Source of the DNA: Nitrososphaerota archaeon
GTDB taxonomy: Archaea; Thermoproteota; Nitrososphaeria; Nitrososphaerales; JACQRY01
Reading direction: 5' to 3'
Length of the DNA: 64,000 nucleotides
NCBI GenBank assembly: GCA_016184315.1
Contig: JACPCU010000010.1
Location: 10,035-74,034, forward strand
A program made the position numbers and the translations under genes. Below, one piece after another: positions 59,087-61,318 of this stretch. The notes under the pieces are model-generated. The model made no database searches, had not been told where the DNA came from, and saw only the letters and a list, made by a program, of their open reading frames with translations. Each line of letters begins with the position of its first letter. Within the stretch, counting starts at the first letter, position 1.

Positions 59087-61318
59087 GTGGAAGTCACGCC
59101 AAAATACAAGACTACGTCAGAAGCATTAAAGATCATAGGCAATAAAGACCAAATTCGAAAGGCGTAGATCATTAGTATCACCCCGAATAATTTTGGTGTT
59201 ATTGCCCATGTCGACCATGGGAAAACGACGATGTCAGACAGTCTCCTAGCAGCCACAGGCATGCTCAGCCCCTCAGTGGCAGGAGAAGCTTTAGCGTTAG
59301 ACTACATGGCTCTTGAACAGCAGAGGCAGATGACGATCAAAGCGGCTAATGTGACCTTATACTACGAACAGGAAGGCAAACCATTCGTCTTCAACATGAT
59401 TGACACTCCGGGCCACATAGACTTCACAGGCAGAGTGACCAGAAGCCTCAGAGCAATAGACGGAGCAGTAGTAGTGTCCGACTCTGTGGAAGGAATCATG
59501 ACTCAAACAGAAACAGTGACAAGGCAAGCCCTAGAAGAAAGAGTCAGACCCGTCCTCTACATCAACAAGATAGACCGCCTAGTAAAAGAGCTCCGCCTAA
59601 CACCGGACAAAATGCAGCAATGGCTGGCAGGAATCATAGCGGACTTCAACAACCTCATATCAATTTACGCTGAACCCGAATACAAAGAAAAATGGAAAGT
59701 CAGCATACAAAGCAACACCGTAGCCTTCGGATCAGCCAAAGACCGATGGGGATTCAACCTCCAAATAGCCCAGAAAAAAGGCATCAAATTCCAAGGCATC
59801 TACGATGCCTACACCAGCAATAAGCAAGACGAACTGGCGGCGAAAGCACCCCTACATGAAGCCATTCTAGGGATGGTTATACAGCACCATCCTCCTCCTC
59901 ACGTAGCCCAAAAATACCGCATACCAAAAATCTGGGGAGGAGACCTGCAATCAGAAGTAGGACAAGCACTACTCAACTGCGACGACAAAGGACCAACAGT
60001 AATGATGATCACCAACGTCGTTGTGGATCCACAAGCAGGAATCGTGTGCACAGGACGACTCTTCTCAGGAGAAATCAGAGACGGAGACATGCTCTACCTG
60101 ATCTCCTCTAAACGGCAGGAAAGAGTCCAATCAGTCAACATGTACATGGGCGTCTACAGAGAAATAGTAGGCGCATTAACAGCAGGAAACATACCTGCCC
60201 TACTAGGCTTGGAACATGGAAGAGCAGGAGAAACAATCTCCACAGTCAAAGACATACTCCCCTTCGAAGCCATCAGATACGTCTCCGAGCCAGTAGTCAC
60301 GTTGGCAGTAGAATCCAAACACCCCAAAGACCTGCCCAAACTCGTGGAAGCAATGAGGAGACTCGCCATAGAAGACCCTAACCTCGTGATAAGAATCAAC
60401 GAAGAAACAGGAGAAATGCTATTATCAGGAATGGGCGTACTCCACCTAGAAATAGCCACCACTCTACTACAGCAACAAGGACTGGAAATAGTAACATCAA
60501 AACCTTTGATCAACTACCGTGAAACCATAAGGGGCTCAGCAGGCCCGGTCATGGCAAGGTCACCGAACAGGCACAACAAGATCTACATCAAAGTCGAACC
60601 CTTAGCACCAGACATCATAGAGATGATCAGAACAGGCCAAATCAACGAAACCATGGATCGCAAAGGCATACAGAAAACCCTCAGAGACCACGGCTGGGAC
60701 TCAGATGAAGCAAGAAGCGTAGTCACAGTAGACGAAAGAGGCAGCGTCATGATCGACTCCACCAAAGGAGTCCAATACCTACAGGAATCCATGGACTCCA
60801 TCAAAGCAGGCATACTGGACATCTTGACCAACGGCCCCCTAGCCCAAGAATACTGCCGAGGAATCAAAATAGTGCTACACCACTACGTGCCCCACGAAGA
60901 CCCCGCCCACAGAACCTACGCCCAGCTAATGCCCGCGTCAAGAAGAGCCTTACTCGGAGCCATGCTCTCAGCAGACCCCGTTCTACTCGAACCCATACTG
61001 GGAATTGAGGTCAAATGCCCCACAGAGCAAATAGGCGCAGTAGCAGGAGTCATATCGTCCAAGCGCGGAAAAATGATCAACATGACCCAGAAAGGAGTGC
61101 TGGCCATCATAGACGGAGAAGTTCCCGCCGCAGAAACATTCGACATCTCAGAAGTCATGAGAGGAGCCACAGCAGGAAAAGCTATGTGGAACACTCACTT
61201 CAAGTTATGGAACCCCGTTCCATCATCCATGCTCCTCCCAATAGTAACGGAGATACGGAAACGCAAAGGCCTCTCACCGGAACCACCTAGACCAGAAGAA
61301 TTTTTAGATAGAGACTAG
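59087..61318 (+). CDS. fusA: Elongation factor EF-2, join(59087..59159,59190..61318), 733 aa after splicing
   Basis: Exon 1 MEVTPKYKTTSEALKIIGNKDQIR; exon 2 NFGVIAHVDHGKTT...DTPGH...NKID...HEDPAHR (diphthamide site). Confidence 0.95.
59160..59189 (+). other. 30-nt bulge-helix-bulge intron in EF-2 pre-mRNA
   Basis: AGGCGTAGATCATTAGTATCACCCCGAATA; in-frame TAG; central helix TTCG/CGAA with 3-nt bulges AAA and TAA. Confidence 0.88.

Follow-up and report, generated by a model that had tools for sequence, protein, structure and literature searches.

The pre-mRNA intron of the cbf5 gene in Crenarchaeota was reportedly described by Watanabe in 2002. Archaeal messenger RNAs (mRNAs) known to be spliced at the motif called bulge-helix-bulge (BHB) are, in the available parts of a 2020 paper (PMC7714728) and a 2023 review (PMC10485636), cbf5, in the coding region in some Crenarchaeota, and HVO_1309 of Haloferax, in the 5′ untranslated region (UTR), and the same parts expect more archaeal mRNA introns of this kind to be found; the table of cbf5 introns in the accessible portion of Yokobori 2009 (PMC2738675) gives 0 for Cenarchaeum and Nitrosopumilus. 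Here we describe a 64,000-nucleotide (nt) stretch (the window) of contig JACPCU010000010.1 from a Nitrososphaerota archaeon (assembly GCA_016184315.1), in which the sole gene for archaeal elongation factor 2 (aEF-2, gene fusA) is interrupted by 30 nt at 59160-59189, very probably a BHB mRNA intron that the splicing endonuclease EndA would cut out and the ligase RtcB would seal. Coordinates are positions in this stretch on its forward strand, where the gene spans 59087-61318. The full-text literature searched, with subscription journals, database annotations and supplements outside its scope, gave no report of an intron in EF-2, in keeping with the original prediction of this element, which knew of none; the thaumarchaeal EF-2 papers found concern phylogeny or casposon integration and no intron. 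The EF-2 intron appears to be a case not yet described, and one that is widely conserved. New are its host gene, its lineage, how broadly it is conserved and its having two alternative sites; the class of mechanism is already known.

The interrupted EF-2 gene and its fold

The frame that opens with GTG at 59087 reads ...KDQIRKA, stop, IISITPNNFGVIAHVDHGKTTMSD, codon 27 being TAG (59165-59167), and the translation of 59087-59320 is VEVTPKYKTTSEALKIIGNKDQIRKA, stop, IISITPNNFGVIAHVDHGKTTMSD... A mechanical list of open reading frames (ORFs) splits this one frame into a 26-amino-acid (aa) ORF (59087-59167) and a 695-aa ORF (59231-61318). The longer ORF, from ATG 59231, is aEF-2 (TIGR00490, 822 bits, cut-off 738) and matches positions 35-720 of the 720 in the profile; it lacks positions 1-34, and with them the N-terminal strand beta-1 and the P-loop. 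Coding for the P-loop is found at 59190-59230, as the conserved NFGVIAHVDHGKTT in the same frame, with no start codon in that interval. In-silico removal of 59160-59189 joins 73 and 2129 nt into 734 codons including the stop, which confirms the 733-aa product proposed for the excised message, and the joined exons read QIR-N-FGV (CGA A/AT TTT GGT, a slash marking the cut or insertion point here and below) with DQIRNFGVIAHVDHGK as the predicted junction-spanning peptide. All that marks an aEF-2 is then in place, including the G1 P-loop AHVDHGKT within TIGR00490: the N-terminus from exon 1, the P-loop from 59190-59230 and the profile match from exon 2. This is the one EF-2 match in the 2.0-Mb genome, a set of 35 contigs that is 92% complete and in which the window is contig 32; a second intact fusA, which would have told against the proposal, was not found there. 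The positions from which the original prediction worked (GTG 59087, TAG 59165-67, ATG 59231, the helices and the bulges) all hold on re-reading and translation. The parts of the gene and of the predicted motif are as follows, with folds given at minimum free energy (MFE) unless stated otherwise.

59087-59159, plus strand: exon 1 of aEF-2, GTG start, 24 codons (MEVTPKYKTTSEALKIIGNKDQIR) and base 1 of the Asn codon
59148-59153, plus strand: outer exon-exon helix h, 5′ strand ACCAAA, pairing with 59191-59197 with one bulged U
59154-59157, plus strand: central 4-base-pair (bp) helix H, 5′ strand TTCG (last base of the Ile codon, T, and first two of Arg CGA)
59158-59160, plus strand: 5′ bulge AAA, predicted cut 59159/59160 by the canonical BHB rule and frame restoration
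59160-59189, plus strand: predicted 30-nt BHB intron; no insert and an exact QIR/NFG junction in 17 of 41 genomes of the order
59161-59183, plus strand: intron hairpin h′ (GG.GT.GAT / ATC-AC-CC)
59165-59167, plus strand: in-frame TAG inside the intron, where translation of unspliced RNA would end after 26 aa
59184-59187, plus strand: central helix H, 3′ strand CGAA, pairing with TTCG at 59154-57
59188-59190, plus strand: 3′ bulge TAA, predicted cut 59189/59190; the MFE alternative has a 4-nt bulge and a 5-bp central helix
59190-61318, plus strand: exon 2 of aEF-2, opening with the final two bases of the Asn codon, then FGVIAHVDHGKTT (P-loop) and the other 695 codons up to the stop
59191-59197, plus strand: outer helix h, 3′ strand TTTTGGT (TTT-T-GGT), with one bulged U

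The motif thus places a 4-bp helix between two 3-nt bulges, one on each strand, with the exon-exon helix h flanking it on one side and the intron helix h′ on the other (the hBHBh′ arrangement), at a position 73 nt from the start codon. The unconstrained fold of 59140-59205 (-12.9 kcal/mol) holds the UUCG/CGAA helix, the 3-nt bulge AAA, an imperfect intron hairpin and an ACCAA/UUGGU outer helix, and forcing the BHB costs 0.2 kcal/mol; across the family the 5′ bulge is unpaired in the MFE fold of all 34 sequences folded.

Conservation among relatives, covariation and exon constraint

The order was sampled by searching 40 further genomes with the 695-aa protein, and together with that of the window the DNA upstream of the P-loop was read in 41. 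An insert falls precisely at the boundary of QIR and N[FL]G (site 1) in 17 of these; four, of families f6 and f15, have none there and carry a 28-29-nt insert inside the P-loop Lys codon (GK/TT, site 2); one has an intein after the P-loop Lys (AHVDHGK/C...HN/TTMSD); 17 are uninterrupted, reading QIRNFGVIAHVDHGKTT (...QIRN[FILM]G[VI]IAHVDHGKTT), and two gave nothing to assess (no match, and a C-terminal fragment only). Exon 1 is homologous to the N-terminus M-P-[KR]-[FY]-K-[ST]-T..E..KIIGNKDQIR, which runs straight into the P-loop in the intron-less relatives. Each interrupted genome searched has one EF-2 match, the two in G008 being halves of one gene on separate contigs. Among 30 named loci with EF-2 at least 70% identical, nine of which duplicate genomes of the order sample by protein identity, 19 have an insert at site 1 (four Candidatus Nitrosocaldus records among them, the Nitrosocaldus introns measuring 37-63 nt), seven have none, two have an intein and two are cut off. 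Among named records the closest is a metagenome-assembled genome of a groundwater 'Thaumarchaeota archaeon', its EF-2 being 92% identical; the remaining relatives belong to Nitrososphaeria.

The inserts at site 2 have their own central helix, ACGG/CCGT (CGG/CCG in two), with a perfect 8-9-bp hairpin and a looser 3′ side:

L003:3582-3636, L008:3582-3636, L007:3579-3633 and L009:3579-3632, minus strand: site-2 inserts, GGA AA/R ACT, 28-29 nt

Both site 2 and the intein fall within 13 codons of site 1. The intein, at AHVDHGK/C...VHN/TTMSD, occurs in three Nitrososphaeria records without the site-1 intron (loci L068, at G005:C140:12200-14600 on the minus strand, L020, L053 and L058), one base from the point of the site-2 intron; a 1093-aa open frame in L063, a distant outgroup record, looks as if it contains an intein too.

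Beyond the order, a site-1 pattern (ATTCGAANGG-N(14-60)-CCCGAATNAT), blind to the CAGG type described below and to site 2, matched once per genome in 25 of 401 sampled genomes of the class, against a single match for the reversed-pattern control. The matches fall in families f9 (9/10), f4 (4/4), f14 (1/1), f2 (1/1) and f24 (9/10, of another order) and in the window genome, and this pattern search of the class sample found none in f13 (0/223), f16 (0/78) or f10 (0/11). To judge from family size, f13 and f16 would be the big ammonia-oxidiser families, and f9 groups with the named Nitrosocaldus records in an EF-2 tree. That tree (50 rows, quick search) needs seven changes of the site-1 label, at least four of them forced by well-supported branches, and places the intron-less f16 beside the intron-bearing f9 and f4; it is left unrooted, the outgroup branch of 9.66 being too long, and we claim no order of gains and losses from it. 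On these distributions the site-1 intron is widespread and patchy in the class, with no fewer than 11 family codes and 41 distinct sequences retaining the interruption, and the simpler reading is that it is apparently old, sits on several deep branches and was lost repeatedly, including in the large families without a match. For example, the uninterrupted gene L012 (G007:C89) keeps the full ATTCGAAATTTTGG and the exact exon signature CAGATTCGAAATTTTGG of the intron bearers, as expected after a recent, precise intron loss.

We applied one excision rule to every insert, a cut after the second base of the 5′ bulge and after the second base of the 3′ bulge. This restores M-P-[KR]-[FY]-K...KDQIRN[FL]GV[IV]AHVDHGKTTMS in 39/39 insert-bearing loci, and the frame likewise in L076 and in 6/6 further distinct metagenomic introns, 41/41 distinct inserts in total (the unspliced pattern had fetched 80 metagenome loci, 71 of them chance matches outside EF-2); the in-silico junction is the one that uninterrupted relatives read. 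Inserts measure 28-63 nt overall, with 30, 31, 32, 33, 37, 42, 43, 45, 49 and 63 nt at site 1 (29 and 46 nt also, in metagenomes) and 28-29 nt at site 2. Their lengths are no multiple of three in 19 of 31 distinct site-1 inserts and in 4/4 at site 2, and an in-frame stop, TAG, TGA or TAA by lineage and mostly the third intron codon, stands inside all 31 distinct site-1 introns; translation through the inserts is therefore impossible. Selection for early termination on RNA that has not been spliced may lie behind the conserved stop, or helix composition may produce it as a by-product.

The pairing is kept while the sequence changes. When the sequences are anchored on the cut sites, the central helix forms 4/4 pairs in 31/31 distinct site-1 sequences, as TTCG/CGAA with the cut in phase 1 (CGA A/AT) in 28 and as CAGG/CCTG (AGG AA/T) in three, from two families; between the two types both sides have changed at three of the four pairs, and in the CAGG type the cut lies one base further on. 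Since CAGG/CCTG goes with AGG, the intron strand of the central helix tracks the synonymous Arg codon (CGA or AGG) of the exon. The three bulge-adjacent pairs of the outer helix form in 28-31 of the 31, and its pairs 4-6 form after a bulged U or, in the ATCTGG forms, as a continuous 5-bp helix. Hairpin pairs 1-2 form in 31/31 and pair 3 in 29/31, with five pair types, and the intron core is a closed hairpin in 35/35 distinct introns. On a MAFFT alignment of 30 rows (A1), which shifts the three CAGG rows by one column so that they count there as 'other', the explicit BHB pairs 90.6% of cells (95.6% in the outer and 86.7% in the inner helix) against 27-51% with the partners slid by 1-3 columns. 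Both sides change at 6/7 pairs of the hairpin h′, 52 cells show both-side changes against 19.2 in shuffles, and the covariation score is 0.294 against 0.135 in shuffles, none of 500 reaching it, a figure that is no probability as the rows are related. Without any hint of the structure, RNAalifold finds the outer and inner helices again, double changes occurring at 6/12 pairs, and a BHB-constrained fold costs at most 1.3 kcal/mol over the MFE in 35/35 sequences (median 0.5).

The exons carry a matching constraint. Intron bearers, in 18 distinct spliced contexts, always have AAT as the Asn codon, its third base T pairing in the outer helix; their Arg codon is CGA in 15 and AGG in 3, and their Ile codon ends in T in 15 and C in 3. 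In 26 distinct uninterrupted genes Asn is AAC in 17 and AAT in 9, Ile ends in C (10), T (9) or A (7), and none of the three bases is fixed at the Arg (or Lys) position (third base G in 14, A in 7, T in 3 and C in 2). In this comparison the synonymous exon sites are frozen only in the intron bearers, because there a strand of the outer and central helices is built of codons. Moreover, the codons Asn AA/T of the CAGG forms and Lys AA/R of site 2 do not exist contiguously in the DNA, and joining of RNA is therefore needed to make them. The motif of the window is, on the evidence of its relatives, beyond chance.

Splicing machinery, predicted pathway and rival explanations

A single splicing-endonuclease gene was found in the genome, together with one for an RtcB-type ligase (PF01139, 555 bits). 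The EndA gene (C30:111155-111727, 188 aa) matches PF01974 (88.5 bits) and PF02778; its best solved relatives, 2cv8_A, 3p1z_B, 3ajv_B and 2zyz_B (E 1e-39 to 1e-35), are what we take to be catalytic subunits of crenarchaeal endonucleases, and the alignment covers a lysine-rich loop, GIPKPKGADF, presumably the 'Crenarchaea-specific loop' linked to a broad substrate range. By these matches the protein is the catalytic subunit of the crenarchaeal heterotetramer type. ARAGORN finds only 18 transfer RNA (tRNA) genes in the genome, nine of them with introns, and many more are probably hidden by multiple or non-canonical introns.

On these grounds we propose the following pathway. The nascent transcript would fold, its exon bases 59148-59157 pairing with 59184-59197 and its intron folding into a hairpin; EndA would cut after 59159 and after 59189; RtcB would join the exons to CGA A/AT TTT GGT and would probably also circularise the 30-mer intron. 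Only the spliced mRNA would then encode the 733-aa EF-2 with strand beta-1 and P-loop, and the unspliced RNA would yield a 26-aa peptide, through the TAG at the third intron codon. An hBHBh′ intron in a single EF-2 gene, cut at the second bulge bases to give an R-N-F-G junction, was the core of the original prediction, and the exact-site polymorphism, the frame shifts, the covariation and the exon constraint uphold it; the aligned fusA 5′ ends of relatives, where it had looked for a test, show the intron at the exact site together with covariation. Its further claim that functional EF-2 needs mRNA splicing appears sound as well, given that EndA and RtcB are present, that no second EF-2 copy was found and that the comparative evidence agrees.

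Several observations weigh against this pathway. The splicing is something that we infer from comparing sequences: a search for RNA sequencing runs over 58700-61400 listed none, and a 22-nt IUPAC probe for the spliced junction had 0 matches in metagenome contigs, a result with no bearing on expression. The fold of the window sequence by itself is only modestly better than shuffles (z = -2.19, 7/200 shuffles as good), the single-sequence MFE prefers a competing UCG/UGA register over the central helix in 18/34 sequences, and the central helix is missing from the RNAalifold result on the MAFFT alignment. The 3′ side of the TTTTGG forms can be drawn either with a 3-nt bulge and then a helix carrying one bulged U, or with a 4-nt bulge, and is thus not strictly canonical, the motif being mildly relaxed. 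No second (structural, beta) EndA subunit was found in the 92%-complete genome by phmmer (ORFs of at least 80 aa) or by PF02778. Lastly, it is uncertain where translation of exon 1 and the mRNA itself begin, as the ATG of the relatives is ACG here.

As to that start, the relatives' ATG stands 5-6 nt after an AGGTGG Shine-Dalgarno-like box and is ACG in the window (59085-59098) and TCG in the congener L002, and both keep an in-frame GTG inside the AGGTGG box (59087 in the window), three codons upstream of the relatives' ATG. GTG 59087 is the likely start codon of exon 1. Upstream lies the presumed archaeal promoter of the EF-2 gene, whose ACGGTTTATATAGTTA stretch is also kept in L002:

59044-59051, plus strand: TATA-box-like TTTATATA, about 36-43 nt upstream of the GTG, read from the sequence

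Four other accounts of the insert deserve weighing against splicing by EndA and RtcB. In translational bypassing (hopping), known from phage T4 gene 60 and mitochondrial byp elements, the ribosome would take off where exon 1 ends, skip the hairpin gap and land before exon 2, with no RNA splicing; a short gap with a hairpin and a stop 2-3 codons after the putative take-off, as in 31/31 site-1 inserts, suits it and bears a superficial resemblance to gene 60. The take-off and landing codons are mismatched, however (Arg CGA or AGG against AAT (59186-88) or CCG in the TTCG type and TGT in the CAGG type), the split Asn and Lys residues arise only through RNA joining, and what is conserved, the 4-bp helix, the 3-nt bulges and the exon-intron covariation, belongs to a BHB and is not needed for hopping, which makes this account very improbable. 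We give equally little credence to an insert that stays in place, in a pseudogene or in a gene whose truncated EF-2 starts at ATG 59231 or at a non-canonical exon-2 start. An uninterrupted 695-aa ORF does run from 59231, and at 92% completeness a second copy may conceivably have been missed; yet the 695-aa product (profile 35-720) would lack the P-loop and beta-1, a perfectly conserved NFGVIAHVDHGKTT is read from the startless interval 59190-59230, the protein sequence of exon 1 is conserved in all lineages, the interruption persists across the families with compensatory changes, and no second EF-2 was found in the interrupted genomes searched.

The insert might instead be removed by some agent other than EndA and RtcB, an unknown nuclease and ligase or a self-cleaving RNA, or EndA cleavage might mainly destroy or regulate the transcript. 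Here the finding of the catalytic EndA subunit alone is a point in favour, as is the decay, rather than splicing, that follows cleavage of mRNAs by eukaryotic TSEN in the available part of PMC10485636; but the geometry is exactly that of an EndA substrate, with canonical cuts restoring the frame in every distinct insert, and decay would leave no source of functional EF-2 where the gene is single. Self-splicing fares no better: 28-63 nt is too short for a group I or group II intron, whose ribozyme core takes hundreds of nucleotides, and Rfam at gathering threshold finds one tRNA only in the window, so that we rejected both classes. Altogether we regard removal by another agent, or decay, as improbable. 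An assembly or sequencing artefact, by which the 30 nt would not be genomic, is the sort of error that a 35-contig draft assembly can invite, and is next to impossible given a homologous insert with a different intron loop in the congener (EF-2 92% identical), inserts in single-contig genomes such as G009, and inserts in dozens of independent assemblies from different sources. An EndA/RtcB-spliced intron is thus the explanation that we retain.

The original prediction had also suggested a wider hidden set of mRNA introns in the lineage, and this part gained no backing from the genome scan for BHBs and ORFs, which left EF-2 as the sole convincing match. EF-2 itself escaped a strict scan (three consecutive inner pairs; 4562 raw hits, 69 left by coding filters), its hairpin having a bulge after two pairs. 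A relaxed scan went from 11666 raw hits to 830 after a codon-usage filter and to 10 with a BHB within 1.5 kcal/mol of the MFE, and gave no further convincing split gene, with filters that are arbitrary and would miss introns above 120 nt, weak BHBs and very short exons, and so without implying absence. The other nine candidates were rejected as adjacent genes or chance matches, for example an EVE-like gene ending with TGA in the '5′ bulge' at C15:63971 (judged two adjacent genes), a glycine-cleavage T-like gene that has its own start, and a G1P-dehydrogenase whose frame stays open upstream and supplies a normal N-terminus. At the 3′ end of the EVE-like gene, outside the window, C15:63964-64000 (plus strand) forms a near-perfect hBHBh′ with a 26-nt 'intron' and a central UUCG/UGAA, and the gene that follows encodes a membrane protein; EndA might still process this transcript.

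Among other features of the window, the tRNA-Tyr(GTA) gene at 10422-10511 (minus strand) is 90 nt by ARAGORN and 89 nt by Rfam, above ordinary tRNA length, and may hold an intron. The EF-2 gene is flanked by a methyltransferase-like ORF (57089-58003, minus strand) with weak matches to DNA and tRNA methyltransferase models and by an HD-type 5′-deoxynucleotidase-like ORF (61327-61869, minus strand), neither with an evident link to the intron.

Meaning and comparison with known systems

What is interrupted here, next to the GTP-binding loop, is the only gene copy for an essential translation factor, and the intron is conserved across at least 11 family-level lineages of Nitrososphaeria, including the thermophilic ammonia oxidiser Candidatus Nitrosocaldus, of which cultures exist. 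Archaeal mRNA splicing, and the way it interacts with coupled transcription and translation, thereby gains a tractable natural system, and intron loss a natural experiment, the two largest sampled families being without the intron. It also matters for annotation: gene callers will render EF-2 here as a protein truncated at the N-terminus without P-loop, or as a pseudogene, and as EF-2 is a widely used phylogenetic marker such errors count; BHB-aware annotation would correct them. Lying 73 nt inside the mRNA of the one translocation factor, with its stop near-universally at the third codon and its helices built from EF-2 codons, the intron could conceivably serve as a conserved gate, tying EF-2 synthesis quantitatively to free EndA and RtcB capacity and hence to the state of tRNA maturation, and the second BHB site and the intein within 13 codons would further hint that conserved GTPase motifs can acquire BHB introns in the DNA, a reading that we hold tentatively and think rather doubtful; the broader coupling of translation capacity to tRNA-splicing activity, raised at the outset, is speculation.

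The nearest described relative is the cbf5 intron, which in the available part of Yokobori 2009 (PMC2738675) is, like that of EF-2, a short coding-region mRNA intron with a relaxed BHB, removed by the tRNA endonuclease (a removal predicted for EF-2), in lineages with a heterotetramer-type EndA and with a pattern of gain and loss among relatives. It differs in its host, a pseudouridine synthase gene of Crenarchaeota as against a translation GTPase of Nitrososphaeria. In the window genome cbf5 itself (TIGR00425, 395 bits, profile 10-322) is one open frame without stops, the intron being in EF-2 instead, and the EF-2 intron further departs from the cbf5 type in lying 73 nt from the start codon and in having two alternative sites, one of them inside P-loop codons. 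HVO_1309 of Haloferax volcanii (Schwarz et al. 2020, PMC7714728; PMC10485636) shares with EF-2, in the accessible parts of these sources, an EndA substrate near the 5′ end of an mRNA; unlike EF-2 it has the element in the 5′ UTR with the frame uninterrupted, in a euryarchaeon with a homodimeric endonuclease. The BHB introns of archaeal pre-tRNAs and pre-rRNAs have the same hBHBh′ geometry, cut positions and presumed enzymes, whereas the EF-2 substrate is protein-coding and its helix strands are made of codons. Inteins of the P-loop likewise interrupt the most conserved part of an essential gene, but they are removed at the protein level and run to hundreds of residues, where the EF-2 element is 30 nt with a stop. 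In HAC1 and XBP1 of eukaryotes, IRE1 cleaves the mRNA and a tRNA ligase or RtcB then joins it. As in EF-2, a short intron is excised independently of the spliceosome by a protein endonuclease and a tRNA-type ligase and the coding is changed; the endonuclease, the RNA motif and the regulation, by stress of the endoplasmic reticulum (ER), are different. The available part of PMC13149111 mentions this unconventional splicing, of which the gate considered above, with the same low likelihood, would be an archaeal analogue.

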